From a virus: DNA of 64,000 nucleotides. Of the stretch, positions 19,033 through 63,343 are shown one piece after another (the stretch's first letter is position 1; each line of letters opens with the position of its first letter). The position numbers were made by a program, and so were the translations under genes. The notes beneath the pieces are model-generated. The model made no database searches. It worked only from the letters and a program-made list of their open reading frames with translations, and had not been told where the DNA came from. The stretch is taken from the IMG/VR virus record IMGVR_UViG_3300031566_003932; one strand, written 5' to 3'.

Positions 19033-19050
19033 CAAGAAAGGAGGGAGAAG

Positions 19051-19345: not shown

Positions 19346-19376
19346 GCTTTCCCTTGAACAAAGAGGGAGGCTGACC

Positions 19377-39963: not shown

Positions 39964-40944
39964 TTACACACTGGTTACATGAGTCATGAGAAAGGCGAGA
40001 TTCTTGGCCGTAATCTTCTCATCCTGGTAGTAACCAAGCTCGATTTCCTCGCTCTTGGTCTTCGGGTCAAACGGATGCCGTTCTGCGATCATGTTCGGCA
40101 AGCCCGGTTTGGTCCATCTGAAGGAGTACATAAAACTAGGTTCCTCAATGCTCGGGCTGGCCGGTGCATAATAAAACAAGACATGATCACCCCAGAGCGG
40201 GCTTAATGATGCGGTTTGACCTTCCTGCGTGGTGCTGTAGTAGGCCCTTCCGACATGGAACGCATCAAGCTCGAAAATTCGCTTGAACTGCTCCACACTG
40301 GCATATCTGACACCCACTTCACCAGGTGCCCCGGCATAACCGTATATGATTGAGATCACGTCGGCATGCTGCCTGAAATTCCGCCATGCCAGCTCGCTCA
40401 TAATGCAGCGGTTTGGCCTGTATCCTGTTGAATCCTGGACGTTAGCGACTGCCTGCCAGCAATCGGCCAACGGAGTGCTATAACCGGTTCTGTGCTCTAT
40501 CCAGTCAGACGTGATAGTGGCATAAGAGCCACAATTGCTTCCACTGGTGCACCTTAGAGCTACCCGTTGCTCCCAGGACAACATGAGTTTGCTTTTGATG
40601 AATTTTGTCCGGCCTTCCCGCATGTTACCGATGAAAACCGGGTCCATATTTTCGCGATCCTCAAGATTCAAGGGCATTTTGAGAGCGTAATTCTTCGCGT
40701 TATAGCTTTCAGATGAGACACTTCGCTCGATCTTGTTCGCTTCATCTCCTGGTGCCCTCTTGTCATCCTCAATCCTGAAAGCGTCCGCATGACTCCAAAT
40801 GATGTAAGTATCGCTTTGTTTTCCCACCGAAACGATGGGGGCAATAACATCGGCAATCATGCCTTTAGGTTCGTAATTGATCGCCACATTCGACAAATGC
40901 TGATCAATATGCAGGTCGTGACCTGTTGCTCCTCCTCCTGCCAT
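39964..40944 (-). CDS. Major capsid protein
   Basis: 326 aa after decoration genes; HIDQHLSNVAINY, IAPIVSVGKQSDTY. Confidence 0.85.
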   Translation of the reverse strand: MAGGGATGHDLHIDQHLSNVAINYEPKGMIADVIAPIVSVGKQSDTYIIWSHADAFRIEDDKRAPGDEANKIERSVSSESYNAKNYALKMPLNLEDRENMDPVFIGNMREGRTKFIKSKLMLSWEQRVALRCTSGSNCGSYATITSDWIEHRTGYSTPLADCWQAVANVQDSTGYRPNRCIMSELAWRNFRQHADVISIIYGYAGAPGEVGVRYASVEQFKRIFELDAFHVGRAYYSTTQEGQTASLSPLWGDHVLFYYAPASPSIEEPSFMYSFRWTKPGLPNMIAERHPFDPKTKSEEIELGYYQDEKITAKNLAFLMTHVTSV

Positions 40945-42104: not shown

Positions 42105-43607
42105 TTACAGGTCTTCGTAAGCATATCGTTTGGCAAGATCCGCATCGCCTTCAAGCACGGCCTTGGAAGCCTCGGCGTAGTTCACGTCCTTATGATCGGC
42201 CATGTACTTCTTGGTCTTGGCCGTGAGTTCCTCGCCTACGGTCTTGTATTCCTTCTGCTCATCGCCAGTGCCTTCCTTGCCCTTTTCGGTGATATCAAAC
42301 ACCTTGGCATGAGTTTCAAAGCACTTCTTGAAGGCATCGAAGGTGATCGAGAAACCATGATCATCCGTATAAACGTGCTTCTCCAAGTCGTTGACCAGGA
42401 TATCGCGGGCCGCGGGTGTCATCTTGCCGTCTTTGACCATCTGCTCGCAGAACGTCTTGATTTCATCCGTCCGGGCCGTTTTCAGACCATCGGCTTTCTC
42501 TTTCTTCAAAGCCTCGGCCTCGGCCTTGTAGGTCTTGCTCTCGCCTTCCGATTTTGTTAAATCGGCTTTTGCCGCATTCAGCTCATCAGTGAGCTGCTTA
42601 ATCTTTTCATCAGACATTTCTTCAACCTCCTCGTCTGTTTTAATTTCCCCGCTTTCATTGACTTCAAAGCTATAACTGGCCATTTTCTCAAACGTCCCGA
42701 CTTCGGGAGTCATGGACAGATAGGCTTCCAGGTCTGCAAGATTACTGACGGCGGGGATATCTGCGCCTAGTAAACCGACGGCGGAAAGTACCCGTTTGAA
42801 TACCTTGCCGCTCTCTTTCAAATTCCAGTAAATCTCGGCGCTCACCCTCTTGTAACGTCCAGAGGTGATCGCCTTATAAAGTACGTCAGGCACCTGAGTC
42901 ACAGTGGCGATAAGTTTTTCACCGACTTTCTTGAGGCCCTTCACCCAGCCAAGGGCGGGCTGGCCATCTTCCAGGTGCATTTTATTGTCATGTGCAAGTT
43001 TCAGGGGCGGTTTGATTTTCTCCTGCAGCTCATAGAAAGCATGAACCATTTCGTTCAAGTCGCCCTCGGTGTATGCGTCTCCGTTCCAGATTCCGGTGCT
43101 GAAAACCTCGACATCGAACTCGTGGGTCTTTTCCTCAGTGGCATGGCTCCTGTTCCCTGCCTGCGTTTTCCTGTCTACCCACTGGCAATTTTTGGGTTCA
43201 TAATTGCCATCGTTATTTGTCCGGTCGATTGTGTAACCGTCCGGTCGCGGCCCCATATCTTTCATAAAATCGTCAAAACTATCCTGCCAGCGTTGGCATA
43301 CGGAAACCCCGCGGCCTCCGTATCTTGCATAATCCTTGTCATTGCTATTGACACAGCGTGACTTCATGGAAGTCCAGACCGAATAGTCTTGCTCTCTCGA
43401 CATGGCCGCCGTTTTGCTCCATTTACCCTCTGCGTCCTTGGTCCATCCCGCGTTTTTCACGGCTCCCCAGCCGATCTTCGCCGCCATCTCGTCATCTCCG
43501 GGGGTCTTGCCTAGAGAACTATTCGCAGCATTGCGCCAGATTTCTTGTGCGCTCGCGGGAAGCACTTTCACTCCATCGGGCAAACTTTCTAATGTTGGGT
43601 ACGGCAT
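42105..43607 (-). CDS. Head maturation protease/scaffold (Mu gpI-like) with N-terminal ChaB-like domain and in-frame HNH domain
   Basis: AAKIGWGAVK ChaB; YGGRGVSVCQRW...IDRTNNDGNYEPKNC HNH; LKLAHD, PALGW, YKRVSAE, LLGADIPAV protease; helical scaffold tail. Confidence 0.85.
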   Translation of the reverse strand: MPYPTLESLPDGVKVLPASAQEIWRNAANSSLGKTPGDDEMAAKIGWGAVKNAGWTKDAEGKWSKTAAMSREQDYSVWTSMKSRCVNSNDKDYARYGGRGVSVCQRWQDSFDDFMKDMGPRPDGYTIDRTNNDGNYEPKNCQWVDRKTQAGNRSHATEEKTHEFDVEVFSTGIWNGDAYTEGDLNEMVHAFYELQEKIKPPLKLAHDNKMHLEDGQPALGWVKGLKKVGEKLIATVTQVPDVLYKAITSGRYKRVSAEIYWNLKESGKVFKRVLSAVGLLGADIPAVSNLADLEAYLSMTPEVGTFEKMASYSFEVNESGEIKTDEEVEEMSDEKIKQLTDELNAAKADLTKSEGESKTYKAEAEALKKEKADGLKTARTDEIKTFCEQMVKDGKMTPAARDILVNDLEKHVYTDDHGFSITFDAFKKCFETHAKVFDITEKGKEGTGDEQKEYKTVGEELTAKTKKYMADHKDVNYAEASKAVLEGDADLAKRYAYEDL

Positions 43608-43734: not shown

Positions 43735-44445
43735 TCATCCATTTATCACCTTGATTATCTGCATATTCTCAGGCACTATTTGATGACATTTATGGCAAAG
43801 TTCATAAGGCTCAAGTCTGAATTTCGTAATATCATCAAAGATATTCCCGAGCATGCCTTTCTTTGCTGCATCCAAGCAGCACGTAGTTATGTCACCATTG
43901 CTATAAACCATGACCTGGCCTCTCTCAAGCCAGGGGCAGGCGTATTTGACAGGACTTTCAAACCAATCGACTTGACCGGCCCAATTATTTGGGAGTGTCA
44001 CCGGGTCAATTGTAAGTCGCCCAGCGATACCGAGCTTTCGAAATATCTCAATCGTTCTTGCCGTTACGCGAGGGTCGCCATGATAGGTGATATCGATTGC
44101 GGTAATTCCTGCATTCTGCAAGTTCCGGGCAAGTTCCTCAGTCATCAACTTTCCATTAGTGTTTGCGTGTATGATCTGCCGTATAGGTAGCTTATTACGA
44201 GCATGCTTGACCATCTCTGCAAGATCGGGGTTTAACGTAGGCTCACCTATGCCAAATAGGTTTAACTCGCGCTGTGTGCCCTGTTTGCAGAAGTGGGCCA
44301 CCCATTCGATAGCCTTCTCAAAGACCTTCATGCTCATCAAGCCCACTTCCCGGAACTTCTTTTGAAAAGGAGCCGGGCAGTAGGGGCATGTATTGTTACA
44401 GAGGCTTGAAACCTCGATGCTATTTATGGTTGTTATCGGCTGCAT
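43735..44445 (-). CDS. Radical SAM protein with twitch/SPASM-type domain (paralog 2)
   Basis: CNNTCPYC, GIGE, TNG, NWAGQ, C..CC..CxxC. Confidence 0.9.
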   Translation of the reverse strand: MQPITTINSIEVSSLCNNTCPYCPAPFQKKFREVGLMSMKVFEKAIEWVAHFCKQGTQRELNLFGIGEPTLNPDLAEMVKHARNKLPIRQIIHANTNGKLMTEELARNLQNAGITAIDITYHGDPRVTARTIEIFRKLGIAGRLTIDPVTLPNNWAGQVDWFESPVKYACPWLERGQVMVYSNGDITTCCLDAAKKGMLGNIFDDITKFRLEPYELCHKCHQIVPENMQIIKVING

Positions 44446-45076
44446 ATCTAACCAATTTCTCCCTCAATGGATGTGTCAATCTGTCCTCCGGTATCACGAC
44501 TAAAATCGGGCCTGTAAGCAAAAGCTCATCAGGTGCCACAAAAACTAAATCATCCGTATATTTTTCAAAAACCTTGAGCCATTGTTCTGGGGTCTTCATG
44601 TTGATATGTGAGGGATCGGTCCCTTTGTCCAGGCATAGCGTGTGCGCCTGTATACGTCCGACTCGAAAGCATTCATTCAACACATCGTCAAGTATCGATT
44701 CATCGATGTGCTCAAGCAATGCCGAGGAGAACACCAGGTCGAATTCTTTATCCTTGTAGGGCATGTTCTGAACGCTGCCCTGCCTGAGATTAGGCAATCC
44801 ACTATGAAAGACTGCTATCTGGCTTATCTCGATTCCATGGACATTTTTAAAACCCCTGCTTTCCCATACCCTCATGGCATGGCCCACGCCCGAGCCAAGG
44901 TCTAAGATCTTGGCCGAAAGAGGAAGGCCGGTATACATCAGAATGCGGTTGATATAATACGCCTTGGCTTCGTTGGCCCATTCGGGCATGGGACTATTGA
45001 TATACTGGTGCCGATACCAGCCCTTGAGATATTCCTGATCATACCAGGACCCGTCTATGAATTTTTGATTATCCAT
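44420..45076 (-). CDS. Class I methyltransferase (copy 2)
   Basis: Same as 50-706. Confidence 0.85.
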   Translation of the reverse strand: MDNQKFIDGSWYDQEYLKGWYRHQYINSPMPEWANEAKAYYINRILMYTGLPLSAKILDLGSGVGHAMRVWESRGFKNVHGIEISQIAVFHSGLPNLRQGSVQNMPYKDKEFDLVFSSALLEHIDESILDDVLNECFRVGRIQAHTLCLDKGTDPSHINMKTPEQWLKVFEKYTDDLVFVAPDELLLTGPILVVIPEDRLTHPLREKLVRYAADNNHK

Positions 45077-45830
45077 TAGCTGCCTTAAATATCTTCCACC
45101 CGGTGAAATTCCTATTATATCCCTGCATTCCGCCCTCTGTTTCACCCCGGAAAGTAAAATCGAATCCGCAGTCTTTGAGAAAAGATTTCAGGATTACATT
45201 TGCCGTGTTTTGATCCGGATATCCGTATTGAGCAAATTGATCATCACTAAAAAAGCCGGGTGCGGGCGCGTGTGTCTCCAGGTCCATAAACTTGACCCGC
45301 GTTAACGAATCTTTCAGGCTATCCCTCGGGCTGAAAATCTCGTATTCGCCACCCTCGATATCTACCTTGAGAACGTCAATAGTATCGAACAAAGATAGAA
45401 GATGCTCAAAGCCTATGGTCTGGGTAAAGCCTGCATTGATATGCTCATTAGGATCAAAGAAAGTTCCGTATTGCCCGTGGTTGCTCCGGGAACTTGACCA
45501 GAATATGTTACGAGCCTCACCCGTTTTCAATGCCGCGGCCGCCCACATGGGCGTAATGACATGGCCAAAATGATTATTATATGTGTTCTTTACCAAAGTT
45601 CTGAAATTCTCAAAGAAGGCCTCGATTGCCAGGATTCGGTTAAAGCCCTTTTCTGCTGCAAAATATAAGGTACTGCAACCGATATGAGCGCCTATTTCAA
45701 GCATAGTATCATGGGAACCGTTGAAATCTTCCATGTATCTCACACCCTCATCCAGAATCCACTGGTCGCAGTCTTGCAGTTCCATCGTGACATCACGGCT
45801 TTTGATGTGCGGGTGTGCTATGTTAAGCAT
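45069..45830 (-). CDS. FkbM-family methyltransferase (copy 2)
   Basis: Same as 699-1460. Confidence 0.85.
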   Translation of the reverse strand: MLNIAHPHIKSRDVTMELQDCDQWILDEGVRYMEDFNGSHDTMLEIGAHIGCSTLYFAAEKGFNRILAIEAFFENFRTLVKNTYNNHFGHVITPMWAAAALKTGEARNIFWSSSRSNHGQYGTFFDPNEHINAGFTQTIGFEHLLSLFDTIDVLKVDIEGGEYEIFSPRDSLKDSLTRVKFMDLETHAPAPGFFSDDQFAQYGYPDQNTANVILKSFLKDCGFDFTFRGETEGGMQGYNRNFTGWKIFKAANG

Positions 45831-46587
45831 ACATCCTCACGAGGTCCTGGTCAGTAGGTTGATTCTCCATTTCAAACTGCGCCATAAGATCGGCGGATAT
45901 CTCTTGATGACAAGTCCGACAAAGAGCATAAGGCCGGATAGGGCGACTAAGGATATCCCCATCAAACACATTGCCAAAAACGCCGAGATTACGATAGTCA
46001 AAGCAGCAAGGCGTAATATTACCCTCAGTGAGTACATATCCTCTCCCCTCTATAAGTGGGTCGCATCGACCCTTGAGCATGCAGTCAACCTGATTCTCAG
46101 GCTCAAGCTGCCCTGCCCAATTGTGCGTATAGATAATAGGGCCATTATTGAGCACCCCCGGAATTCCGACCTTTAGCATGATCTGAGCTGCCTTACGCGC
46201 ATGGGCGGGCGAATGCGGGGAAAGGTCAAGCTGATCCATGCCCGCATCCTTGAGGCCCTTGCAGACCTCATAAGTCATATTTACGCCGTTAGTACACATG
46301 CAGACGCGCCGATCGCCCATGATTTCCTTGGTGCGCTTCACCCGTTTAACGAGTTGTGGATCGAGAAACGCTTCGCCATCCCCGTTCATATTGACTTCCA
46401 TCTGTGTGCCACGGTTGCAAAGCTCCTGTAAAAGCTCAAGGGTCTTGTCAAATACCCGGTCTGACATGATGCCGGGTTTCCTTGCAGGGTCTTTCACGAG
46501 CAGGCGGTTAATGCAATATTGACATTGCAAATTGCAAATGTTAGAAAGCTCAATAGTCGTTATGGTCTTGAGGGTAATCATCCCCAC
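45823..46587 (-). CDS. Radical SAM paralog 1 (copy 2)
   Basis: Same as 1453-2217. Confidence 0.9.
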   Translation of the reverse strand: MGMITLKTITTIELSNICNLQCQYCINRLLVKDPARKPGIMSDRVFDKTLELLQELCNRGTQMEVNMNGDGEAFLDPQLVKRVKRTKEIMGDRRVCMCTNGVNMTYEVCKGLKDAGMDQLDLSPHSPAHARKAAQIMLKVGIPGVLNNGPIIYTHNWAGQLEPENQVDCMLKGRCDPLIEGRGYVLTEGNITPCCFDYRNLGVFGNVFDGDILSRPIRPYALCRTCHQEISADLMAQFEMENQPTDQDLVRMYA

Positions 46588-47201
46588 CTCATAAGGCCCT
46601 TATCGTCTAAAATTTCATCGTTCAACAGATTGATGAAATGATGACAATCTGTGCAGTAAACATGATATATGCTTTGCACCCGTAAATATTTTTTGCCATA
46701 CATATTTTCAGGATATCCAGCCGTAACCCAATTTTTATGCTCACATTTTTCCATAAAGGAGACCTCCCATGGGACACCTAATATTTTGCATCTTGCATAT
46801 TATAGCGATTTTATTCGGTTTCATCCTGCTGTTCATAACCGTTCCACTTCATATCATTTACGCTTGCGTACACAGAAAAAGAAAGTTAGCTTAAATATCG
46901 CTAGTAAGCCAATCATCGAGAAAAGGCTTCAATCCCTTTTGTATATCCAGATATAGACTTAAAGCGGAATTCCGTTCTATTTCTAATTTATTCGGATCTG
47001 ATGCAACTTTTTTAGCAAAAATCAAAGCTCGAAATTCTCCATTATCCTTTGTATCAAATTCAAACTGTCTTGTGCATTTATGGCAAAGTCGAGCAGGGTA
47101 AACGTCAAAAAGCATTCTATCTATTGCGTCCTCTGCCCCGCATTTCTCACAAGAAATGAAAACGCCATATTTCTTAGTGATCGAAATATTGATAAAGGCC
47201 A

Positions 47202-49424
47202 TCACGCAAACCCCTTCTGAGGCTCAAGCCTCGGTTTTGCGCTCTCCTTGCCATTCCATTCATCAACTATCGTGACCGGTATCAGGAGTGCGCGGCATTG
47301 AAAGTGATTCGGAGGCGTGTAACTGCCCCAGTCCTTCAAGATCCGCCCGTTGAGATGTTCGCAAATATCCGATGTCCGCTCATCCAATACCGCACTGTAT
47401 TCATAGGCCAGCACAAAGCCTCTAAATTCCGGTTGCCCGAAAAGCGCCTGCCGTGCCTGGTTAAGCGCGTCAGACGTATTTGTTCGGGCAATATTCTCTA
47501 ACCTGGCCGGGACGTTAATCGCCTTACCCCCCGCATCGACTTCCGGCAGCATCTGCAAGAGCGTTGTTTCCTCGCCTATGGCCTTGATGGTCTGAGGTAA
47601 GGTCTTGTCGTACTTGACGGCATTCTCAAGCACATTTTGAACGCCTTTCAAGGTATCTTGCTCCATCACGCCGGCAATCGTGAAAGCCTTGGATGCAAGA
47701 AATTTCTCAACCTGCGTCTTATCCATGCCGGGGCGAATGGTCTTGGCCTGCACCTTCTTAGGCAATTCACGGCGGGCGAATTCATAACCATTCTCAAGCA
47801 CGGTAGTCAGATTCTTTCGTATATTGCGCCTGAGATTGCCCATGATTGCCTTGCTTATTCCGATTCCGAGTAGTTCCTTGAGCTTTACATTACCGAGAGA
47901 CCGCTGACCCACGATATTGATAATCTGCTTTTCTATGGATATCCGGACCTCTGCCATGCTCTGCTTGAGGTCGTCAACAAACTTGCCGTCTTGATCATCC
48001 AGGGTGCCTTTGATCGCGGTGAAATCTACTCGTTTGAGCCATGGCTTTTCGGCAAATTCCTTTCTGATAAGATCCTGCTTTTCCTTGGGTTGCGCGGAGA
48101 TCCAGTTTTCTATTTCCTCATCTGAGGGTGGTTCCTCACCGGGCAGGCCCTCTACAGGTATTTCCTCCTCTGGTTCCTCTTCCTCTGCCTTCTCAGGAAA
48201 TCCCATACTCTGCCTGATATGGGCCTCGTCAGTATCGCTCTTTGTTACTGCCCCTTTGCTGACGAGTTCAGCCCATTGTTTCGCTATCTCCGCTTTCTGC
48301 GTGTCGGAGATAGGCTCAAATCGAAACCAGGGGAAATCCTCTGTGCCAAAATTCCATATCGCAAGTTGTCTGAAAAGCTGCTCGTTCAAGGTTTCTTCAA
48401 GGCGCGTGGCGATGATATCCAGAATCCAGAAGAAAGATTCGAGTTGTGTCTGTGATTGGCTGTAACTGCCGGTCTTTCCTTCTTCCGATAATCCCAGGAG
48501 ATTCGGGACTAGGATTGATCGCCCGATAGCACGGTTATGCAGCCCTATGGCCTTTTCAAAGGCATCGGTTCTGACAGGTTGGAAAAGATTGAGTTTTATA
48601 TGATCAGGTACATGGGCAGCCATCTTTACTGAAATATTATTGATGAGATCTTCAAGATGTTCCTTGTCTCCTGGTTGCAATGATCCGTGTTGCGCCCAAA
48701 TAAACCCGCTGGCATGCCGCTCAAGGAAGATATTGTAAAACCGGATCGTAATATCTTTCGACCACCAGGAGCGATAGCAGGCCCTCAGATCTGATTCGCC
48801 GTATATGCGATTGACGTCCGGTTGATGTACAAAATGAATGATCTTGGTAAGGGGTATCTCATTCCGGGCCCCCCCCACAACTTGGCTGATTTTCTCGATA
48901 TTGCCATGCTCATCGAGTTGAAAGCCGCCGTTGAAAGTTTCGGCCGGCCTGAGCTTGAGATCCTTCAAGCCCCAGTATGTCTTGCTGTCATAGGTGATTG
49001 GTTGAAAGACTTTCTCGATTACAGAATAACCATTTTGGAAGGCAGAAAGTATCTCGATCAACTTGTCCGAGAAGCTGCCCCGGATCTGTTTGATTGCAAA
49101 GCCGAAGAAATCGGCCATCTCTTCATGCTCTTTGCGGGGCTCCCCATTATCATCCGTTTCAATATCGAAGTACCAGTCACGGCTTAGGACAGCATTCATT
49201 TTGAATTGCAGGGTGGGCTTGATCTGATCGTCTTTGACCATATTGCTGTAGATCTCATTCCCCTTGGTGATCTTGAGCGTATCGGGATCATAGTCATGAA
49301 ACGTACCGAGGCCATAAAGACTGGTTCTCGCTATACCAATTTCACCGGCTTTGGGGGTGCCTGCTTCTTTCTCAAGAAGATCGGGTTTCTTGAATGCTTG
49401 TAATGCTGCGCTAAGTCTGCTCAT
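47202..49424 (-). CDS. Portal-MuF fusion (copy 2)
   Basis: Same as 2832-5054. Confidence 0.85.
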   Translation of the reverse strand: MSRLSAALQAFKKPDLLEKEAGTPKAGEIGIARTSLYGLGTFHDYDPDTLKITKGNEIYSNMVKDDQIKPTLQFKMNAVLSRDWYFDIETDDNGEPRKEHEEMADFFGFAIKQIRGSFSDKLIEILSAFQNGYSVIEKVFQPITYDSKTYWGLKDLKLRPAETFNGGFQLDEHGNIEKISQVVGGARNEIPLTKIIHFVHQPDVNRIYGESDLRACYRSWWSKDITIRFYNIFLERHASGFIWAQHGSLQPGDKEHLEDLINNISVKMAAHVPDHIKLNLFQPVRTDAFEKAIGLHNRAIGRSILVPNLLGLSEEGKTGSYSQSQTQLESFFWILDIIATRLEETLNEQLFRQLAIWNFGTEDFPWFRFEPISDTQKAEIAKQWAELVSKGAVTKSDTDEAHIRQSMGFPEKAEEEEPEEEIPVEGLPGEEPPSDEEIENWISAQPKEKQDLIRKEFAEKPWLKRVDFTAIKGTLDDQDGKFVDDLKQSMAEVRISIEKQIINIVGQRSLGNVKLKELLGIGISKAIMGNLRRNIRKNLTTVLENGYEFARRELPKKVQAKTIRPGMDKTQVEKFLASKAFTIAGVMEQDTLKGVQNVLENAVKYDKTLPQTIKAIGEETTLLQMLPEVDAGGKAINVPARLENIARTNTSDALNQARQALFGQPEFRGFVLAYEYSAVLDERTSDICEHLNGRILKDWGSYTPPNHFQCRALLIPVTIVDEWNGKESAKPRLEPQKGFA

Positions 49425-50915
49425 TTACCAATCCGCTCCGCTTGCTACAGTTTGGCCTACGCCGAAACCGCTTTCCCATTGAATGCCGACTTTCTCCCTG
49501 AGATACTTTAAGGCCATGCTCACCATATCGGCCTGATCCTTAGTTGCGGTATTCGGGAAATTCTGTAATTCAAGCTCAAACTCTGTCAACCAAGGGGCCT
49601 CTTCAGGCAAGAATACCATACCCGCTTCTATGGCCGGAGTTTCTGTGGCTAGGCGTGTGATCTTGTCGGATTCAGGTTCAAAGGCTATCAAGGGCAGGCC
49701 CTGGACTTCCTGCAAAAGAGAAGATCCCGTTGACTTATCCTCGATTACTATGGCATTCGGCTGCTGGCCAAAGAGGGTTTGACATTTATTCACTTGCGTT
49801 GTTAGAGCCCGCTTCCCTGCCGGATAGTTAAGCCATTCCCGGAATACATCGACAAGATAGTATTGCGTATAGGTTATAAGCCATGTACCACATACCCATG
49901 GCGAATTAGTGAGCTCATCGGCCTTTTGCGCGGTATCCCAGACCTGTAAAAACATGACCCATTGATCTTTGGAAGGTAAAATTTGATACTGCTTGAACCA
50001 TCGCATTTCCACGATTGACCCCTCGAGAGGCGCCGGCCGTTGCTGTAACTGGCAGGCTACGCCATAACTGCCAAGGAAGCGCTGGGCCTCGTCATAAAAG
50101 GTTTCTCCAAAACGATCTCCCCAGTAAAACTCACCCTCTTCCTTCCGGGGATCTTCGGGCATTGCATCCTGCAGCTCGTATTTGAACGGTATCCGCACAT
50201 GCACCCAATCACCGTTTCCCTTCTTAATCACATGACCGGTTAAATCGTCTTGATGTACCCGTTGCTGGATTATGATAATGGCCGAATTATTAGGATCATT
50301 CAGGCGTGTGCTCAAGGAATTGTCAAAACTATCAAGGGCCGCCATGCGATCGGCTTCGGAGTACATGGCCTTTTTTGCATCGTGAGGGTCATCAATAATC
50401 ATAATATCCGCGCCCTCGCCTGAGACTCCGCCAGACATGCCGAAGATAATTCGAGTACCGGTACCATTTATCTCATAGCGCCGTTTTTGATTCTGGTCTG
50501 AGGTAAAGACAATCTCAGATCCCCATCTGACTTGAAACCATCGGCTTTGTACTAACCGGCGCATCTTGACCGCATCCCTAACAGCGAGCTCTTCCTTGTG
50601 CGAGCCGGTAAGGAATTTCTTGGAAGGGTCATTGAGCCAGACCCAGGCCGGGAACATGACAGAGCAAAGGGTTGACTTCATAGAACGGTACGGGACGTTG
50701 ATCACAAGCCGGGTAATCTCACCCCTATACACCCGCTCTAAGTAATCGCAGATAAGCTCGATATGCCAGTTGTGTTGATATTCCACGCCGGGCTCAATTA
50801 TCGGCCAAGATTCCCGGACAAAACTGAGAAAATCCCGCCTGCACAGTTCGGAATCAACTATTTCCTGCTGTAGCAGCCTTAGTGGCAATGTCTTTAAGAA
50901 TTCGGAGTTCATCAA
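49425..50915 (-). CDS. terL: Terminase large subunit (copy 2)
   Basis: Same as 5055-6545. Confidence 0.93.
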   Translation of the reverse strand: MMNSEFLKTLPLRLLQQEIVDSELCRRDFLSFVRESWPIIEPGVEYQHNWHIELICDYLERVYRGEITRLVINVPYRSMKSTLCSVMFPAWVWLNDPSKKFLTGSHKEELAVRDAVKMRRLVQSRWFQVRWGSEIVFTSDQNQKRRYEINGTGTRIIFGMSGGVSGEGADIMIIDDPHDAKKAMYSEADRMAALDSFDNSLSTRLNDPNNSAIIIIQQRVHQDDLTGHVIKKGNGDWVHVRIPFKYELQDAMPEDPRKEEGEFYWGDRFGETFYDEAQRFLGSYGVACQLQQRPAPLEGSIVEMRWFKQYQILPSKDQWVMFLQVWDTAQKADELTNSPWVCGTWLITYTQYYLVDVFREWLNYPAGKRALTTQVNKCQTLFGQQPNAIVIEDKSTGSSLLQEVQGLPLIAFEPESDKITRLATETPAIEAGMVFLPEEAPWLTEFELELQNFPNTATKDQADMVSMALKYLREKVGIQWESGFGVGQTVASGADW

Positions 50916-51456
50916 TGCTCAAATCTTTCAAGATTGGTTTCAAGTCAATCGGTATCGGCCCGCCATCGGGTCCGGAGGCCTCGACTGCCTTAATGTCTTT
51001 CCAGCGATCTCTACGCCGGTTCTTGAGCCAGAAGATTCCAGCGGTAGTTTCCGAAGGTATGTGCTTTGAAACTTTTTTGGTTATTACATACTTGATTTTC
51101 TCTTTTTCCGTTTTCGGGTCAATTTGCGGGTTTTCTTCCTTGACAGCTCGCCGTGTAACTTCAGTGTAGTTATAGCCTTTGGCTCTCTTTTTCAGCGACT
51201 TCTCAATATCTCCCGTATCAAATTCATCCTTCCCCTCTTGAACCGCCTTCCCGAATTCGGGGTATTCCCTGCGCCATCGGACCAGACTATCCCTCGAAAT
51301 ATCTATGAGCTCACAGAACTTCACATCGGTAAAGCCCTCAGAAAAGGCAATCCGGGCTTGCCGGATATACTCTTCTTTGAATTCGCGGGGTCTGCCTGCC
51401 TTATTGTTTTTCTGCTTGGGCGGCATATAATCCATCTCTGAAACTAGACAACACAA
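50854..51456 (-). CDS. terS: Terminase small subunit (copy 2)
   Basis: Same as 6484-7086. Confidence 0.85.
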   Translation of the reverse strand: MCCLVSEMDYMPPKQKNNKAGRPREFKEEYIRQARIAFSEGFTDVKFCELIDISRDSLVRWRREYPEFGKAVQEGKDEFDTGDIEKSLKKRAKGYNYTEVTRRAVKEENPQIDPKTEKEKIKYVITKKVSKHIPSETTAGIFWLKNRRRDRWKDIKAVEASGPDGGPIPIDLKPILKDLSIDELRILKDIATKAATAGNS

Positions 51457-52120
51457 TCTTTACCATTTCAAGATATTCCGCTTTTAGAAATGGCAAAGTA
51501 GGCGGTTGCAATTCTGGGAATTCCAGGAGACGAATGAGTTTGTTGAGCTGCATTTCGATAAAAGGCTTGTCAACCATGACGTTAAATCCCTCAGCAAGTG
51601 CCTTCTCGTAATTAACTGTAGAATCACCCGCCTTAAAAGCAAGTATCTTGTCAAGCCATCCATTCCAATCAGGAATCTTGGCCGGGTTGTTCTGGCCTAT
51701 CAGATAACCCGCTGTCGCTGCGCTCATGTCCGCTGCTACTTCTATGGTATTGGACCCGGTTGCGCACGCGCTCAAGAAGAGTATCGCTAGGCTTAGTATC
51801 ATAAGGTTTCTTTTCATTCTCCAATGCCTTATCTATAAGTTTGATTGCCGCGTATTCGGCTATTTTCCAAAAAAGACCGACCATTATTCCCTCGGTTGGT
51901 CTTTGCTGAAAATTAAGAGGAGGGCATAGAAAGCAGCCGCTAGGGTTGCTAACTTCTCGGGATCAATCTGAAAACCCCAATAGCCTACCACAACCACAAT
52001 CGCCGGTATGACAGCGGCAATACTGGTTTTCCAGTTTTTGATAATTCGGTCTAACATTTTAAATCTCCTCTTGTTTAAGGTTATTCGATCCTATCCACCA
52101 AGCCCCGGGCCTTGATGTAA

Positions 52121-52981
52121 TCATTCGCCTCCGTTTTTATTCTTTTTCTTTGCCTCTATTTCCGATTCCCTCAACTCTAAGCACTTGCTCTCTGTCAACT
52201 TTGAATCGAAAAGAAAATCATAATGCTCAGTTTCCAACCATTCATAAATCCGACTTATGGGAATAAACAAACCCATGTGAGTAATGACTGTGCCCCAACC
52301 GACAACAGGGACTAAAGAGGGAATGCCGATGAATTCTCCCTGTGCGTTAAACATGGCACCCCCTGAATTCCCATAAATAATCTGGCTTGAACTCATGTGG
52401 TAAGGGAGGGATTCAATCTGGAAATTCTTGCGAGTAATTACTCCCACGGTAGGTAAAGGGGGAAACCCCAAAGAACAGCCAACAGCGATGCTTTCATCCA
52501 TAACAAGTACACTGTCTGTATCCTCTTTGTTGGGAAGTATTGCACGATGAATAACTGACTCCTCGGTTCTTAACTTCAAAAGGGCCAAATCGTTGTCTTT
52601 GCTGTAAAGAACAATATCGGCCTCAACCTTCAGGGTGCCAATAGGAGTGCTAATGTCACGATATTTGAAGATTTCAACATAAACAATTGCCCGTTTCTCG
52701 CGTTTAACATTTTTCTGTACATCAGTATCCCATTCATCTGTAATGCTGATAGCACCTTCAATCACATGATGATTAGTAAGTACATAAGTTGAATAGCCCA
52801 TCTTGCCTGTTTGAAGATACGAATAAACCACAGTGCCGGAACCTCCGACATTACCCTCCGTTACCCTCACGACAGGGTAGATGAATTTCTCGTGGGCCTG
52901 GATGGCCGTTAGCGCAAATGCTGAAACTGCAAATACGAGAATCACCCCCAGGACCAGAAATGCGGAAATGATTCGTTTCAT
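52121..52981 (-). CDS. Secreted trypsin-like protease (copy 2)
   Basis: Same as 7751-8611. Confidence 0.88.
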   Translation of the reverse strand: MKRIISAFLVLGVILVFAVSAFALTAIQAHEKFIYPVVRVTEGNVGGSGTVVYSYLQTGKMGYSTYVLTNHHVIEGAISITDEWDTDVQKNVKREKRAIVYVEIFKYRDISTPIGTLKVEADIVLYSKDNDLALLKLRTEESVIHRAILPNKEDTDSVLVMDESIAVGCSLGFPPLPTVGVITRKNFQIESLPYHMSSSQIIYGNSGGAMFNAQGEFIGIPSLVPVVGWGTVITHMGLFIPISRIYEWLETEHYDFLFDSKLTESKCLELRESEIEAKKKNKNGGE

Positions 52982-52989
52982 GTTAATCT

Positions 52990-53400
52990 CCTTGGTTAAG
53001 GGTTGTGGGGCGTGACAGGGTATCCCCTGCGTATTAGGCCCGTTCGCGAGCTACACGCCCCGTAAAATGGGCTACAATGGGCTGGGTTCCACCGACTTGC
53101 GTGTGCCCAATCATCCGCAAGCTCGTTTACCATTGGGTAAACTCATCATTGTAGTCCATATCTGGTTCAGAACTCAGGCTTCCACCCCTATTAAGGCCAC
53201 CTACCACCAGAATCAAATATATGAGGCGTTATCTCTGGGCTTTCGCTTGCACTCCGTTCGATCCTTCGTCCGGGCTCCCCAAAATGGCCCGCGCCGCCTG
53301 ATTCGATTAGCGGGTTGAGCAACCATAAGATTGACTCGCGCTGCCGTCCGGCTCCAATCAGTCCGTTGCCCAGTCTCACCCCAACTCGAAAACATGGGGG
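52990..53400 (-). ncRNA. Candidate structured ncRNA (copy 2)
   Basis: Same as 8620-9030. Confidence 0.5.
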
Positions 53401-53403
53401 GAA

Positions 53404-53694
53404 TTATTCTCCAAAACTGTAATGGTTTCCGTCATCCCAGCGACCACCCCATGTACCACCAAGACTTTCCCAAAATTTACCTAATGGAAGATGATCCCCG
53501 GTTGTAGTCAAGTAGGTTCCATCCTTGAACAGGTTGAGGTCTATGGCGAGGCGCTGGTAGTGAAAACTCTTATTTTTATGGCCTGTGATTGCATAAGCAT
53601 CGCCAAAGGTCACTTCATAGCCCTGCTCATAAGCAAACAGAAGCAGGAGGGCGATCATATGAGCAAATTTTGATTGTTTCTGGCGTAGGGTCAC
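53404..53694 (-). CDS. M15 endolysin (copy 2)
   Basis: Same as 9034-9324. Confidence 0.85.
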   Translation of the reverse strand: MTLRQKQSKFAHMIALLLLFAYEQGYEVTFGDAYAITGHKNKSFHYQRLAIDLNLFKDGTYLTTTGDHLPLGKFWESLGGTWGGRWDDGNHYSFGE

Positions 53695-54615
53695 TTCTGT
53701 TCCTCCCGTTCTTGCTTTAAGAGCTCGTAAATGGGCTTCTTTTGCTCTTCGACTTCAGTAAGCATGGTCTGGACTTCCTTGAGTAAGTCTTGCGCCCTCA
53801 CCTTGGCATTGTAGGGCATGAGGTTGGCCTGAATGATGCCGGATGTATCACGGATGCGCTTGTTGATCCTGCTATTTAGGGCATCAATGGCTGTGAGTTT
53901 ATCGGAGATGATTTGACATTGCTCTAAATTCATATCAACCTCTCTGAGGGTGGGGCCGAGGCCCTGGAAAAAGGAGGGAAACCATGAGCCTCGGCTTGGG
54001 TGGTTTGTAAGGGAGTCACCATGCAGAGATAGGGTAAAACGGGGAAAGGGGAATGTCAAACGGGTGGAGGGTGTCGTTTGTATGTCGTTTATATGCCTTT
54101 TGTAGGTCTTTCTAGGTACTTTTGTAGTGTAAACGGGTACACGGCGATAATAGGCTTATAGGCGTCTATCAGAGGCACGTGAGCTTTGCGTAATAGACGC
54201 CTGGCCGTGCGTTCGTTGACCTTAAGGTAGCTGGCTATTTCCTTAAGGGTTACGAGTGGTTTTTCTTGGGTCATTCCCCTTCCATAACCATAGTTACCAA
54301 AGCCGCCGAATCGAGCATGTAATCAATCGCCCGTTTTGCCCGTTCCGCTTCCTTGGTCTTGATGTCGATCACAATCTGCTTTGACTTGAGCTCGCGGTTG
54401 AGAATTTCCATTTCTTTTCGAAGGGTGATCACCATAGTTTCGAATTGAGCGCGAGTCATATTTTGGAATGGCTCAACCGTTGTGGCTTCGTAGTAGTCAA
54501 AGCGCTCGGCTTCATATGGAGGCTCAGGCCAAGCCCAATCTGAAGTCGTCCTAAAGTTTTCTGCTATATTATCGCTGCCCATTTCTTTCCCCTCATTTTT
54601 TATGGTGTACGAAAA

Positions 54616-55359
54616 TCATTCATCATCCTTTCGATAATGACAATCTATACACAGGCCTCCGAGATACTTTTGTCCTTTCCCACAATGCTCGCAGAGGCCT
54701 GAATCTTTTGCCGAGTTCTTCTTTATCTCCACATCCATTTTCATGCTCAATTGGTCAAACTGTTTCCGGAGTTTTTCAGTTGATAGAATATTATTCTGCC
54801 AGAACTCATCAGCTTGGCACCAATTGATAACTTGCTCAATCTCTTCCGGGTCCCGCTTATCTTTGTGAACTATTAGAGCCATATGCTTTGCCCATTTTCC
54901 AATATCGGGTTGTTTGAATTTCGGTTTGCGTTTTTGAATGAGATTTAAGAGAAGTTGAGAAAGGCGAAACTCGTCCGAAGTGGTTTCTGACTTCGGACAC
55001 TCTTCTCTACTCTTCTCTACTCTACTCTGAAGGAGCACTTCGCTTGCATCTTGCTTGCATTGTGCTAGCACTTCGCTAGCATTACCATTTACTGATATAA
55101 ATCCAGCAGTTATCAAAGGCTCTAAATTTATATTTCCTTGCAACATGCCTTTTTGTTGTATCCATTGTGGATCTGCCGGTGTATTGTTATTTGTGCGGCT
55201 TGCTAGCATATAAAGGGACATAAGTAGCAACTTGCTAGCATCTTGCAAGCATCCATACTCGTAATCATCAAGCAGGCTATGATAGAGTTTAATCCAGGGT
55301 GGATCACGGTGCTTGTAATGCTGGAATTGCTCCCAGTTTTTTATAACTATGTAGTTCAT
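54616..55359 (-). CDS. Replication initiator (copy 2)
   Basis: Same as 10246-10989. Confidence 0.8.
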   Translation of the reverse strand: MNYIVIKNWEQFQHYKHRDPPWIKLYHSLLDDYEYGCLQDASKLLLMSLYMLASRTNNNTPADPQWIQQKGMLQGNINLEPLITAGFISVNGNASEVLAQCKQDASEVLLQSRVEKSREECPKSETTSDEFRLSQLLLNLIQKRKPKFKQPDIGKWAKHMALIVHKDKRDPEEIEQVINWCQADEFWQNNILSTEKLRKQFDQLSMKMDVEIKKNSAKDSGLCEHCGKGQKYLGGLCIDCHYRKDDE

Positions 55360-55574
55360 CCCTCCCGTTTCTCCCTCGGCCTCAAAATCTCCCGAAACTC
55401 ATTATACAAAGTCATCTTAAACCCCCTCTTCCCCTCACACTCTGGGTCCTGACACACATAATAGAAATACTCCCCTTTGTAATGTGATGGCCTCATAGGG
55501 TGGAGGTTGCACACCGGGCACCAGTAATCAGGTTTAATTTGTGCCGGTGATTGCATTATTCATGCACCTCGCCC

Positions 55575-56175
55575 TTACCTATTTGCCTCAAAAAACGCTT
55601 CTGCAAAGCCGGGCGGAGTAATAGAGCGCAAAACAGATCGGTTTTTTGATGGTGGCAATCTGTGTACCCAGTCATGCGGCAAATACTCAGGATGATCAAC
55701 AATACCCAACTTACCGGATGACGTACCTCCAGTCCATAAACCTACGGGCAATACTGGTTTCTCTTTTGGTTTAATGTGTTCTCCCCAGATACAAGTACGT
55801 TTTGTCCAAGGATCGCCATATTGATATGGTTGAAAAATATATTTCCACTTGCCAATATATCGTCTTAGTGTGCCGACAGGATTTTCTAAAGCCCACCATT
55901 GAGGTTTCGCAACAAATATAATTCTCATGCAAGCATCCACCACCGATAACCCCTCTCTCATTTCATCATCAGTTCTTTTCCATCGAACACCGGATATCGC
56001 AAAGACGGTACAGGGGGGGGGCAGCAAGGATGCCGTATACATTTTCTGGTGGTTTATAAAGGCGCACATCATGCTCGGGTAGTGTGATATTCAGAACATT
56101 ATATCCAGCCTCTTTGTAGGGTCTACTCCATGCCCCCGTGCCCCCACATAGATCAAGGATCATTCTTTTAATCAT
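55575..56175 (-). pseudogene. Frameshifted C5 methyltransferase (copy 2)
   Basis: Same C9 tract as 11205-11805. Confidence 0.8.
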
Positions 56176-56320
56176 CTAACCCGCCTTTTCTTAAACCACC
56201 TATAAACACGGGCCCACGGCGAATCTATACGCCAGACTCCATATCTCTTGAGGTATTCCTTTTGCTCCCGGCGTAAAGACTTGCCGCCATCATAAGGTCG
56301 GGGTTTGTTGATTATGATGC

Positions 56321-56803
56321 TCACTCAAACTTCTCCACCCTCTGATCATAAAATGTTACAGCCAATGCGAACGCCTGCCACAAATCCTTTTTAAGCCCAT
56401 AGGTCAAACCAGGACTTTTTTTTGTTCCCGGGGGTCCGAAGCGATCTATAAGGGCTTGTCTGATATTGGAATCTTTTGCTCGGGCTGAATTGCAAAGGTG
56501 AAGTTTGACTTGTCGGCGGGGTATAAATTCGACATTGTTGTCTAAATTTAAACGAGTCCAAACCTCATAAAAGCGACCACAGAAAAAAATTGTATCAAAC
56601 ACGCTTTTTCCTACCGGCATCCCATAGGATTCTATTTTTTCAATCGTTATGGTGTGCATATCTTCTAGCGAACCAAGGCCTGCTAGAATAAGTTCGTTTT
56701 CTGCAATATGAGCAAAACGGATTTTATATCCATCCCATCCGATATAGGCGCTTTGCTCAGATCCAGGATCTACGGCAAGGATAATTTCGGGTTTGTCGGT
56801 CAT
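56321..56803 (-). CDS. RuvC-like resolvase (copy 2)
   Basis: Same as 11951-12433. Confidence 0.75.
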   Translation of the reverse strand: MTDKPEIILAVDPGSEQSAYIGWDGYKIRFAHIAENELILAGLGSLEDMHTITIEKIESYGMPVGKSVFDTIFFCGRFYEVWTRLNLDNNVEFIPRRQVKLHLCNSARAKDSNIRQALIDRFGPPGTKKSPGLTYGLKKDLWQAFALAVTFYDQRVEKFE

Positions 56804-58626
56804 TTCCCCTCCCTCTCTGCTTTGATATACCCATGAATCCATTCATTCCGGCGCATGTCCCATTCAGGGTAGAAATTGTCCTTCAAAGATTTGCGCTGAA
56901 GACGGGCCTGATAGCCCTGTTCATAAGCGGTCACTTACCCTCCGGTGGTTTATAGATATGTGGGTTTGGCCTTATGCTGCGCCATAATTGGTAAAACATT
57001 TTGACAAACCAGAAGGGGAGACCATTTTGTACTCGGTGATAGGTTTCAAGTGCGCTTTCGCAATCCCAACATTCATGTCCCCAATCCCTTAATTTCCTTG
57101 GGTCGATATGCGGATTCTCTGCCTCATACCGTGCTCGATCGCCACCCCAGGCATGTATCCAATTCCAGCAAGCCCAGGGTGAACCGCAGTAAGGGCATTT
57201 TCGTATTAGAGTCACTTACCCTCCCACCCGAATCTCTTCTGATTCCTTCTTATCCAGTTCCCGCACTTCCCACTCTGACTTTCTCCATGCTTTCCACATC
57301 AATCGCTTTAATTCTTCAGCCTTCAGAGGAGGCTCTTCTGGTGCTCTGTCAATACGAAATATTTGATATGGCATGTTTAACCCCCTGTTGTACTTCATGG
57401 CCTTTCTCATAAGGGTTCATAGCTCTCCCCTATCATGTTCATTCCAATCTTCCGGCCCATATTCATCATCGTGCTTATCGCAAATCCCAGGCTCCGGGCT
57501 CCGCTTGAATCCACCGGGTGGGCCTTTGAACTTTCTACCGCAGACGGTGCAATATTTATCGACACGCCCTTTACCACGGGTATTCTTGTAACTGGCGATT
57601 TGCCTGGTGATTTGTTCGCGCCTGGCTTGCGTATCTTTAGCCATAACCCCCTGAAATGCTTTATTATGATAATCCTCTCATTCCTAATCCATATTGACCG
57701 CCTGCCAGGATATCCACAAACCACCACTTATCGACTTTGCGGATATCTATTTCATGTAGGTTATCTATGATGTAATCACGCGCGTTTTTATCTCGGATAT
57801 AATAGATATCACCGCCCTGTCTTTCTGTGCGCTGCATTCCTCTTTTTTGTGCCCTCAATCGTCCCTCGCGTATAGCTCTTGTGACCGCATGGACATCCAC
57901 GCCCAAGCATTCCGCAAATGATCTGGCCGATTGTCCATCCAGACTTGATAGAAGTCTCATGCGTTTGCGTTTAAGCACTATTCCTGTGGTGGTGCGTGAA
58001 TACCCGCGTTGTTTTAATCGGCGTTGAAGCACTTCGGGTGATAAATGGGCATTTCTTTCTAATATGGTGAGCTCATCCTCACACCAGTTCGGTTCCTTTT
58101 TCTGCCGGACTATCCATCCTTGTTGAATCGCGTAACGTGATACTTTCCATCGGGGAAGATGCAGATATTTTGCAAGAGCTTTAACTTGGCCATTGCCGGA
58201 TGCAGTCTTATAGACTTTTTCAATGAGCTTATGGGCTTCCGGTGTGATGGGGTATTTAATTGTTTTGGTTTTTTTAGTCATAACCCCCTGAAATGCTTTT
58301 AGTATACGGTTTGTGTCTCTCTTTTCATCAAGGTATACTTTCCAAACAAAAAAAGAGCTGCTATCGTTTAAGCAACTCTGAAACCTTTTTATCACTGTGA
58401 GGTTCGGCCATGAAAATAGTCCCAAGGGTCCGTTGCATGCCTTCAAGCACAAATTGGAAAGCGAGTTCGCTTCGGGTGGTCCCGAGCATATCCGCTTCTT
58501 TCTGTAAGATGTTGCCGAATTCAGATGAGCAGGTGAAGGTAACGCGGTCGGTTTTCTTGCCGGTAGCAATGGGGCTTGGATTGAAGTTAATTGAGATTTG
58601 TGGCATGGCTCCCTCCGTAGGTAGTT

Positions 58627-58887
58627 TTATTCAGTTTTTGGGTGTGGTTTCCCCCTAGTAAAATATTGTGTGAGGCGATTTAGTATGGTATTAGGTTTAG
58701 ATTTCTTAGTATGCTGTAAAGACAATTCAAATCCCTGGACTGCTAGAAAAAAGTCAGCAGTTGTCCGTGTACGGCCAGTTTCATAATTGGCAATTTTTGA
58801 ACGACTAGTTTGTAATGCTGTCCCAAAAGCCGCTTGAGAGAGTTCTGCTTTAAGCCGGACAGCTTTGATATAGGCTGGTATATTCAT
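58627..58887 (-). CDS. Cro-like regulator (copy 2)
   Basis: Same as 14257-14517. Confidence 0.8.
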   Translation of the reverse strand: MNIPAYIKAVRLKAELSQAAFGTALQTSRSKIANYETGRTRTTADFFLAVQGFELSLQHTKKSKPNTILNRLTQYFTRGKPHPKTE

Positions 58888-58958
58888 GAATAGGCATATT
58901 GTGCCTTTTTCAAAAAGGAATGTCAAGCCTTATTTTTAACTTTGAGCAATGAGTACAC

Positions 58959-59189
58959 ATGGAAGGCAGAGCAAGACAATTAATGAAGCAAAAAAGGAAA
59001 GAGCTTGGTTGGACTCAGGAAGAAGTCGGCTCTTGGATTAATATGGATCAGTCCCTTTACTCAAAGAAAGAGCGAGGGGTAACTGAATTGTTTGCCGATG
59101 AATGGCTTGAGATAATGACGCAACTCGAAATTCACGGCAGAAAACCTAAACCCGTCAAACTTCCTTTCAAACTAGAATTAGTTTCCTAA
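58959..59189 (+). CDS. CI-like repressor (copy 2)
   Basis: Same as 14589-14819. Confidence 0.8.
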   Translation: MEGRARQLMKQKRKELGWTQEEVGSWINMDQSLYSKKERGVTELFADEWLEIMTQLEIHGRKPKPVKLPFKLELVS

Positions 59190-63000: not shown

Positions 63001-63343
63001 TCTATCCTGATGAAACCATGATCCAATGCCCCTGGTGCGGATACGAGGACAGCGAAAGCAAGTTTTTACCTCTACTTGATGATAGATATGAATGCCCTAA
63101 TCCAAAATGCTACGAGGTATTCCGGCCAAGGGAGGAGATAGAGAAGGAAATAGAACAATAGATGGAAAATTTTCCATGTATGCAGGCTGTTGGGTGATTT
63201 ATGTTTAATGAAATATGGGGGCACTGGATAATCCGTGTACAGGATGATACTTGCTGTAATCTAAGCATGAGTTATGGCGCCCTATGCCTCATGCCGGGGA
63301 GATCAGTAGAGGGGTTCAATTCCCTTCACCCCCACCCCGTATC

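Follow-up and report, generated by a model that had tools for sequence, protein, structure and literature searches.

Capsid maturation proteases of the Mu gpI / gpZ type, T4 gp21 and the herpesvirus assemblins combine an assemblin fold with a C-terminal coiled-coil scaffold and a gene position next to portal and major capsid genes. To our knowledge, the known members have not been described with N-terminal nuclease-fold or ChaB domains. A gene with the same fold, scaffold and position, some relatives of which match the Mu-like prophage I protein family of Pfam (PF10123), is encoded on the minus strand (42105..43607) of a 64,000-nucleotide (nt) stretch of viral DNA, IMG/VR record IMGVR_UViG_3300031566_003932, which was analysed as a whole and is referred to here as the window. 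Its product is a single uninterrupted polyprotein of 500 amino acids (aa), in which an HNH-like module of 88 aa lies in frame between a ChaB domain and the prohead protease, followed by the scaffold.

Two kinds of nuclease-related proteins resemble this module. PacI, a stand-alone homodimeric restriction enzyme, is an HNH enzyme without the catalytic His, in which a Tyr of the omega loop takes over that role and Asp and Asn hold the metal (PMC4081073, PMC5714182). It is the best match of the module among solved structures, with identical motif spacing, a shared Asn-Arg in the helix and no catalytic His in either protein. In contrast to PacI, the module forms an inner part of a protein for capsid assembly and is known from sequence and model. 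The same module, at 40-53% identity, also occurs in free-standing phage genes for 'HNH endonuclease / HTH homing endonuclease' (PHROGs 3377, 374, 8790, 2081 and 953), such as those of Staphylococcus phages SEP9 and Twort, Vibrio phage 277E43-1 and Ralstonia phage FLC1-1B. These genes are separate open reading frames (ORFs), usually with a zinc ribbon in front, a helix-turn-helix (HTH) behind, or 2-4 tandem modules, whereas the window copy is a bare single module within another protein. We know of none of these free-standing genes with a characterised activity.

Enzymatic domains coupled to a component of head assembly are found in the T4 internal proteins (IPs) and Alt and in effectors fused to MuF or portal proteins ('polyvalent proteins'; PMC5512222), which similarly form a modular, fast-changing repertoire at one attachment point. 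In the window, however, the carrier is a protease-scaffold protein and not MuF/portal or a cleavable targeting peptide, and the case is known from genes. Inteins with homing endonucleases are likewise in-frame, nuclease-related insertions in essential phage genes and sporadic among relatives, but with 88 aa the present insert is too short, its fold is HNH-like and not HINT, and the host protein tolerates the extra domain without splicing. The insert begins AAMSREQ and ends NRSHATEEK in front of a T, with neither an N-terminal Cys/Ser nor a C-terminal His-Asn plus nucleophile; an initial annotation of this DNA had already noted the lack of intein termini, and an intein identity was rejected on the grounds of fold, splicing residues and length.

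Taken together, the results describe the insert as an old, strongly constrained domain that has been precisely lost or exchanged by recombination, and not as a recent invader. It is best described, from its motif and predicted fold, as a PacI-type, His-less member of the HNH superfamily, which could be active as a nuclease. Our preferred reading, to which we assign a probability of about 0.45, is that of a passenger domain, long resident, under selection and probably encapsidated, that occupies a modular slot at the N-terminus and would serve as a late nuclease or DNA-binding factor.

Domain order and the inserted module

The ORF is open over 500 codons and, as the initial annotation had proposed, ChaB, HNH-like module, protease and scaffold follow each other in one frame with no stop or frameshift, in agreement with Pfam and PHROG matches. 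The gene is divided as follows:

42105..43607, minus strand: whole gene for the 500-aa polyprotein, a continuous ORF with its stop codon at 42105-42107
43410..43607, minus strand: ChaB domain, residues 1-66 (Pfam PF06150, NCBIfam and fold match)
43137..43403, minus strand: in-frame insert, residues about 69-157 (88 aa), predicted PacI-type His-less HNH / beta-beta-alpha-metal module (clean indel, PHROG HNH families and fold)
43149..43226, minus strand: putative active-site stretch D128-R129-x6-Y136-x-P138-x-N140 ... Q149 ... N152-R153 (PacI-like spacing)
42708..43130, minus strand: predicted prohead (capsid maturation) protease domain, residues about 160-300, beta-rich, with an assemblin / T4 gp21-like fold (PHROG and Foldseek)
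42612..42707, minus strand: low-confidence linker between protease and scaffold, residues about 301-332 (local confidence 46-56 in the full-length model)
42108..42611, minus strand: scaffold part with a long helix (333-392) and a C-terminal helical domain (398-500), from the secondary structure of the model

The full-length AlphaFold2 (AF2) model, built on an alignment of 86 sequences, had a predicted local distance difference test score (pLDDT) of 81 and a predicted template modelling score (pTM) of 0.38, and in it the polyprotein appears as independent domains joined by flexible linkers. For the first domain, ChaB (PF06150) matched residues 9-65 with 28.7 bits, above the gathering cut-off of 27, NCBIfam ChaB matched with E=4e-6, and Foldseek found the nuclear magnetic resonance structure of E. 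coli ChaB (1sg7) with a TM(target) of 0.75 and 36% identity. The host protein is predicted to be a capsid maturation protease of the assemblin / gp21 / Mu gpI type, as indicated by profile, fold, His/Ser residues and position in the head module. Residues 140-495 match phrog_976 'head maturation protease' (E=8e-37), phrog_3894 matches as well (E=4e-22), and Foldseek paired the protease domain with the protease of human cytomegalovirus (prob 0.99), with T4 gp21 (prob 0.98) and also with those of Kaposi's sarcoma-associated herpesvirus, pseudorabies virus and Epstein-Barr virus (prob 0.96-0.99 over the herpesvirus and gp21 matches). Among 86 homologs S256, E258 and R254 were invariant and H206 nearly so (>=90%). 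The scaffold part is acidic, with an isoelectric point (pI) of 4.8, and carries a conserved FCE..VK.GKMTPA.RD motif.

The insert coincides with the HNH nuclease domain that had been annotated at 43140-43400, equivalent to residues 70-156, and the motifs quoted for that domain (WTSMKSRC, YGGRGVSVCQRW and IDRTNNDGNYEPKNCQW) are present as written. Its location in an interdomain linker is borne out by the full-length model and by the indel in relatives described below. Residues 65-155 match PHROG 'HNH endonuclease' families (phrog_3377, E=2e-36; phrog_374, E=6e-33); Pfam and NCBIfam hold no model for the module, no Pfam HNH family matched at E<=1, and hhalign of the module against a canonical phage HNH protein found nothing. 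The AF2 model of the isolated domain (pLDDT 92) ends in a strand-loop-strand-helix unit, with strands at 60-64 and 76-80 and a helix at 81-94 (model numbering), which corresponds to the beta-hairpin-then-alpha-helix metal finger of the HNH / His-Me superfamily. With an exhaustive structural aligner the best match in the PDB was PacI (3m7k_A), with a moderate Z score of 6.0 over 77 of 95 residues, a root-mean-square deviation of 3.2 and 14% identity, covering model residues 1-94. Foldseek against the PDB gave weak matches only, several of them to HNH enzymes (I-HmuI, PacI, Cas8-HNH and Gme HNH). In the PDB copy of PacI, residues 89-118 of 3ldy_A read LGVDRSDSFEGYSPQNARLACFICNRIKSN, within which residues 92-104 (LGVDRSDSFEGYSPQN) have the D-R-x6-Y-x-P-x-N spacing of the module, so that D92 R93 ... 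Y100 S P Q N104 ... N113 R114 of PacI align with D128 R129 ... Y136 E P K N140 ... N152 R153. It is fold and motif together that place the module in the HNH superfamily, since the Z score alone would not be enough.

The residues of this motif are highly conserved. D/E128, R129, Y136, P138, N140, Q149 and N152 are kept in 22/22 protease-embedded copies, and in 301 other copies the R129 position is Arg in 291 (97%), Y136 is kept in 93% and N140 in 300 (99.7%); N152 is found in 240 of these 301, most of the remainder being gaps. N140 and N152 occupy the places of the structural Asn after the loop and of the Asn/His metal ligand in the helix. At the end of strand 1, the place of the catalytic general-base His, all 22 embedded copies have Arg129, and the family-invariant residues, which include R129, Y136, N140, W143, N152 and three Cys (C85, C104 and C141, the only conserved Cys of the module), contain no His. 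In one lineage (P0003, L001 at 4214-4471, and L002) the near-invariant Cys104 is replaced by Trp, giving VWQGW where VCQRW is found elsewhere, with D-R...Y...N...N retained.

The change of His to Arg in 97-100% of copies could also mean that the module is a catalytically dead, HNH-derived DNA-binding or structural domain, which would bind nucleic acid or a partner and act either in assembly, by tethering the protease-scaffold to DNA or portal, or in gene regulation. Inactive His-Me fingers that retain DNA binding exist (SMAD MH1 and Enpp; PMC5714182), a domesticated endonuclease serving as a DNA-binding regulator of capsid genes offers a precedent (PMC8096241), family members with 2-4 tandem copies plus an HTH have the form of a typical DNA-binding array, and the loss of Cys104 is tolerated in the lineage just mentioned. 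However, the full PacI-type set of an acidic residue, Tyr, Pro and two Asn is present in every embedded copy, PacI itself is active with that set (PMC4081073), and the module, with a near-neutral pI of 7.7, is not a basic DNA-condensing protein. We regard a dead domain as rather improbable.

A full scan of 1.84 billion representatives assigned 111,510 clusters to the module family at E<=1e-3 and, at the stricter E<=1e-10, 81,282. Many members have 2-4 tandem modules, frequently preceded by a zinc ribbon or followed by an HTH; the stand-alone viral proteins measure 79-100 aa, 'HNH endonuclease' clusters of 90-100 aa among them, and in the BFVD viral structure library 94 entries matched at E<=1e-3, under the names HNH endonuclease, HTH homing endonuclease and AP2-domain protein. 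The module of the window is thus kin to a very large family of free-standing 'HNH/homing endonuclease-like' phage genes, minus their accessory zinc-ribbon and HTH parts. The earlier assignment to the type of free-standing phage HNH homing endonucleases was correct with respect to this kinship, as seen in PHROG, family scan and BFVD, but not with respect to a canonical HNH motif, the His being Arg family-wide and the motif PacI-like. The family, phage and bacterial, carries the label 'HNH endonuclease' despite the missing HNH histidine, and the PacI-like D-R-x6-Y-x-P-x-N motif may explain it as a whole. Two candidate relationships were rejected. The tblastn matches over query 1-204 in Ralstonia phage FLC1-1B and two Vibrio phages consist of zinc ribbon and module (plus HTH) with no ChaB, and do not represent a recurring ChaB-HNH pair in cultured phages; gene 9 of an Arthrobacter phage, considered as a separate module gene upstream of the protease, proved unrelated.

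Distribution and history of the insert

Among 229 homologs (P and L numbers denote individual relatives) four architectures were found, namely ChaB-insert-protease, insert-protease, ChaB-protease, which is the commonest, and protease alone. In P0005-P0010 and at loci L007-L011 (73-84% identity) a linker of 2-4 residues stands in place of the insert, with W-K-K-x on one side of the junction and (HA)KTHEFD on the other, and overall the alignment with homologous proteases places the insertion site precisely, residues of about 69-157 being exactly missing in relatives that are 73-92% identical. P0272 and P0274 (411 aa, 92% identical), which belong to the same 90% cluster as the window protein, have ChaB only and no insert, whereas P0273, of the same cluster and backbone, has ChaB replaced by a different, unrelated domain at its N-terminus. 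Further sequences stand at the place of the module in P0056 and P0099, and L034 has a tandem ChaB. Because of these variants the N-terminal region of the protease-scaffold must be considered modular, and the slot before KTHEFD is a hot spot of domain exchange. The other N-terminal modules on the same or near-identical backbones (P0273, P0083, P0056 and P0099; L034:225-662) comprise a domain starting MPYPNEH(S/A)ARIKDP without a Pfam match, a helical insert of ~45 aa after ChaB, an unrelated N-terminus of 160 aa and the tandem ChaB.

The module itself was found at three positions of the polyprotein: in the linker from ChaB to protease, right at the N-terminus, and in the linker from protease to scaffold. 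The last arrangement occurs in P0105 and P0222, where the module follows the protease domain in front of the scaffold part, in the linker matching window positions 42612..42707. In L012, which lacks ChaB, the protein starts at MSREQ behind its own TAGGAGG Shine-Dalgarno sequence. For the window gene an internal start at MSREQ had been proposed because of a preceding GGAG, which does exist (from TGG AGC, 13 nt before the ATG) but is absent in L001 and L003, and the Met is replaced in P0009, P0011, P0013, P0026, P0027 and P0042; such a start is a true one only in ChaB-less forms such as L012, and the proposal was not upheld. A 5-nt direct repeat, GGAGC, is present at both ends of the insert (43146-43150 and 43416-43420, minus strand) in the same codon phase (W-S and R-S codons), and a deletion between the copies would stay in frame; the repeat is not conserved in L001 or L003, is probably due to chance, and was discarded as meaningful.

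The module is embedded in ~22 of the ~120 best family hits, and the fusion is common in metagenomes. The possibility that mis-assembly or read-through has joined what are really separate proteins was considered. On the 1.8-kb contig Ga0315547_1041228 (L034:590-720) the ChaB-ChaB ORF upstream is in another frame than the module and its TGA overlaps the module's internal ATG (CCATGAAA, an ATGA overlap), so that the module-protease would start at a Met equivalent to M81; this may be a genuine split gene whose parts are translationally coupled, or else an error of sequencing. Even there, however, the link between module and protease is intact, and the covalent join to the protease-scaffold is constant across all variants. 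The in-frame fusion is present in at least 20 independent metagenomic protein clusters from four sources (JGI, ENA, Logan and NCBI) and in five IMG/VR contigs, and therefore it is not an assembly artefact; in addition, the window assembly forms a closed circle whose overlap of 19,630 bases shows 0 mismatches. We give an artefact practically no credence. In a collection of 50,697 phage genomes no record covered >=80% of the protein, and the fusion is absent from cultured phage records. In the literature no description of an HNH-type module within a prohead protease was found. The fusion turned out to be fairly widespread in metagenomes, as the initial annotation had allowed for, with no paper found that had already described it.

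In the phylogeny of the module family the embedded copies form one clade, the sister of which is the free-standing two-module protein P0263 (support 99/97), and P0105 and P0222 nest inside this clade. On the protease-scaffold tree of 106 sequences the insert is scattered, with at least 12 gains or losses required by parsimony and five tight, well-supported clades that mix presence and absence. Together with the kinship to free-standing homing-endonuclease-like genes, this pattern is what would be expected of a selfish in-frame homing endonuclease, which would cut insert-less protease alleles near the ChaB/protease junction in mixed infections and be copied in by repair, the flexible linker making an intron or intein unnecessary. 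The location in a conserved essential gene, the putative catalytic residues intact in all copies, and the sporadic presence at a fixed site with the same exact junctions among backbones of 73-92% identity also agree with homing. Over the 400 nt after the insert the nt identity of the window is 0.83-0.90 to the empty alleles L007 and L009 and lower, at 0.70-0.82, to the insert-bearing L001 and L003, as would be expected from a gain or loss with very short exchange tracts.

Identity is higher in the insert than in the core for 189 of the 231 pairs; with P0027 it is 86% vs 44%. Synonymous sites were compared in the ten pairs for which DNA was available, the P0026/P0027 group and P0272/P0274 lying outside them. 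In essentially all of the ten pairs, four-fold sites were at least about as divergent in the insert as elsewhere in the gene (for example 0.50 vs 0.43, 0.77 vs 0.55, 0.83 vs 0.72 and 0.65 vs 0.67). As the synonymous sites of the insert are as diverged as those of the host gene or more so, the high conservation of the protein reflects purifying selection, and recent lateral transfer as its cause is not supported in the pairs with DNA. In the nearer pairs (L001-L003) the Nei-Gojobori method gave, with saturated dS, the lowest dN for the insert (0.083-0.110), below protease, ChaB and scaffold, and no other part of the gene is under purifying selection as strong. Three pairs had an insert significantly older than the flanking parts (p 0.008-0.02), a sign that the flanks may have recombined but not of a recent invasion.

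These synonymous divergences are difficult to reconcile with homing, and so are several other results. No co-conversion signature grouping the insert-bearing alleles was seen in the 400 nt following the insert, and the insert tree reproduces local host clades without rejecting the other host clades (approximately unbiased test, p-AU 0.31 and 0.41). Four-fold sites, flanks and this test thus give no sign of a history independent of the host gene. Moreover, the module has none of the extra DNA-binding parts (zinc ribbon, HTH or tandem copies) of its free-standing kin, and a site-specific enzyme fails to account for one module lineage that is in frame at three polyprotein positions. Phage homing genes are mostly free-standing between genes, and the constant in-frame linkage would need another reason. 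A homing element seems doubtful to us, but with its sporadic distribution, exact junctions and intact motif it is a serious rival. With respect to the two options of the initial annotation, a selfish nuclease or a domesticated one, the synonymous divergence, the lack of co-conversion and the strong purifying selection make a domain that was retained or domesticated the likelier of the two and a selfish element parked there recently the less likely, although neither is proven.

Genome and head gene block

The window contains a circular phage-like genome of 44,370 bp read 1.44 times, positions 1-19630 being identical to 44371-64000, and features below 19,630 are duplicates of ones above 44,370. 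The protease-scaffold gene has the normal place in the head block, between portal-MuF and major capsid gene:

50857-51456: TerS
49428-50915: TerL
47205-49424, minus strand: portal-MuF, upstream of the protease gene
separating portal-MuF from the protease gene: two small ORFs, plus two genes each of the radical-SAM and methyltransferase kind
between the protease gene and the major capsid gene: two phrog_673 genes
39967-40944: major capsid gene, beyond the two phrog_673 genes

An HNH-superfamily module coded in the head and packaging gene block might assist packaging in the manner of HK97 gp74, which is an HNH protein and stimulates the cutting of concatemers by terminase, as the initial annotation had suggested. 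However, the module lacks the canonical His-bearing HNH motif and any Pfam HNH match, and the gene lies beside neither terminase nor portal, six ORFs separating it from TerS, TerL and portal-MuF (47205-51456). Close relatives with the same terminase-portal-protease backbone do without the module, and at the N-terminus of a protein directed to the scaffold it would end up within the prohead and apart from the terminase. Such a role is in our judgement very improbable.

The radical-SAM-like and methyltransferase-like genes (two each) occupy 43735-46587, and a radical-SAM gene is the upstream neighbour of the protease gene also in relatives such as L012. The portal gene codes for 740 aa with a C-terminally fused MuF-like head-morphogenesis domain (phrog_113 and phrog_3517/115), which makes it a second head protein of this genome with a fused extra part. 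No second copy of the module was found elsewhere in the window genome. Palindromes of 6 bp are broadly avoided in the genome (1-44370); AACGTT, GCGCGC, CCTAGG, CGTACG and GTCGAC are absent and most others are well under expectation. General palindrome avoidance is typical of restriction-system pressure, and site avoidance was rejected as a clue to the specificity of the module since, being general, none of it can be attributed to the module. GTDB genomes contained only insert-less or partial relatives. One of these, on a contig of a Desulfobacterales metagenome-assembled genome (L021, JAUWMM010000092.1), encodes residues 168-500 at 82% identity and stops before the N-terminal region; it hints at the host group.

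A possible passenger of the procapsid

The preferred reading, a selected passenger domain, starts from the protease-scaffold's N-terminal part as a slot that would accommodate ChaB, tandem ChaB, the module and at least two other unrelated domains. The C-terminal scaffold part would take the protein into the procapsid, and the module, being covalently linked to a scaffold-targeted protein, would be co-assembled inside the prohead. Maturation proteolysis may then release it from the protease, and the freed module, carried in the virion or expressed late, could serve the phage as a site-specific DNA endonuclease or as a DNA-binding factor, for instance against the DNA of the host or of a competitor after ejection. 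The covalent link is present in the genes themselves, while encapsidation, release and activity are proposed on the basis of sequence. Two considerations favour a passenger or cargo function. The kin of the module are free-standing, yet the embedded copies are repeatedly in frame, which suggests selection for travelling with the protease-scaffold into the procapsid. In addition, other unrelated small domains occupy the same slot, and head-internal passenger effectors are known (T4 Alt and IPs, MuF fusions; PMC5512222).

Several points weigh against this reading. With regard to the module, the Z score of 6.0 to PacI lies under the level where fold matches are safe and is not safe evidence alone, and phmmer and profile searches of the PDB gave no PacI match at E<=10 and nothing relevant among solved structures. 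The canonical general-base His is absent, and PacI-like catalysis via Tyr136 depends on motif spacing and on that moderate structural match. PacI contains two zinc sites of the Cys4 type and an additional N-terminal part, whereas the module has three conserved Cys. The Trp at Cys104 in the lineage of P0003, L001 and L002 is, like these Cys and the missing sequence match, a point against full membership in the PacI type. With regard to the proposed fate of the module, scaffold and protease fragments usually exit or are degraded at maturation and a 10-kDa fragment might not stay, and a nuclease enclosed with the genome would have to spare it. Finally, the repeated absence of the module in close relatives means that it is dispensable, and its patchy distribution fits a homing element too.

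A more far-reaching version is tentative and, as we see it, unlikely to hold in full: the N-terminus of Mu gpI-like protease-scaffold proteins would be a general, fast-evolving cargo slot, through which some phages would encapsidate a PacI-type, tyrosine-dependent and site-specific nuclease to be freed by maturation proteolysis and ejected with the genome against host or rival DNA, and the whole family of >100,000 clusters would be PacI-like.

If the module is active and encapsidated, it would represent a new route of head loading, by fusion to the protease-scaffold instead of MuF/portal or a cleavable targeting peptide, and would offer a natural model for loading cargo into engineered capsids. 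If it is a homing element, it would demonstrate that an essential gene can lastingly harbour a nuclease gene in its reading frame, with neither intron nor intein. In both cases, the link to the PacI motif provides a concrete catalytic hypothesis (Tyr136, D/E128 and N152) for one of the most abundant un-modelled phage 'HNH endonuclease' families.

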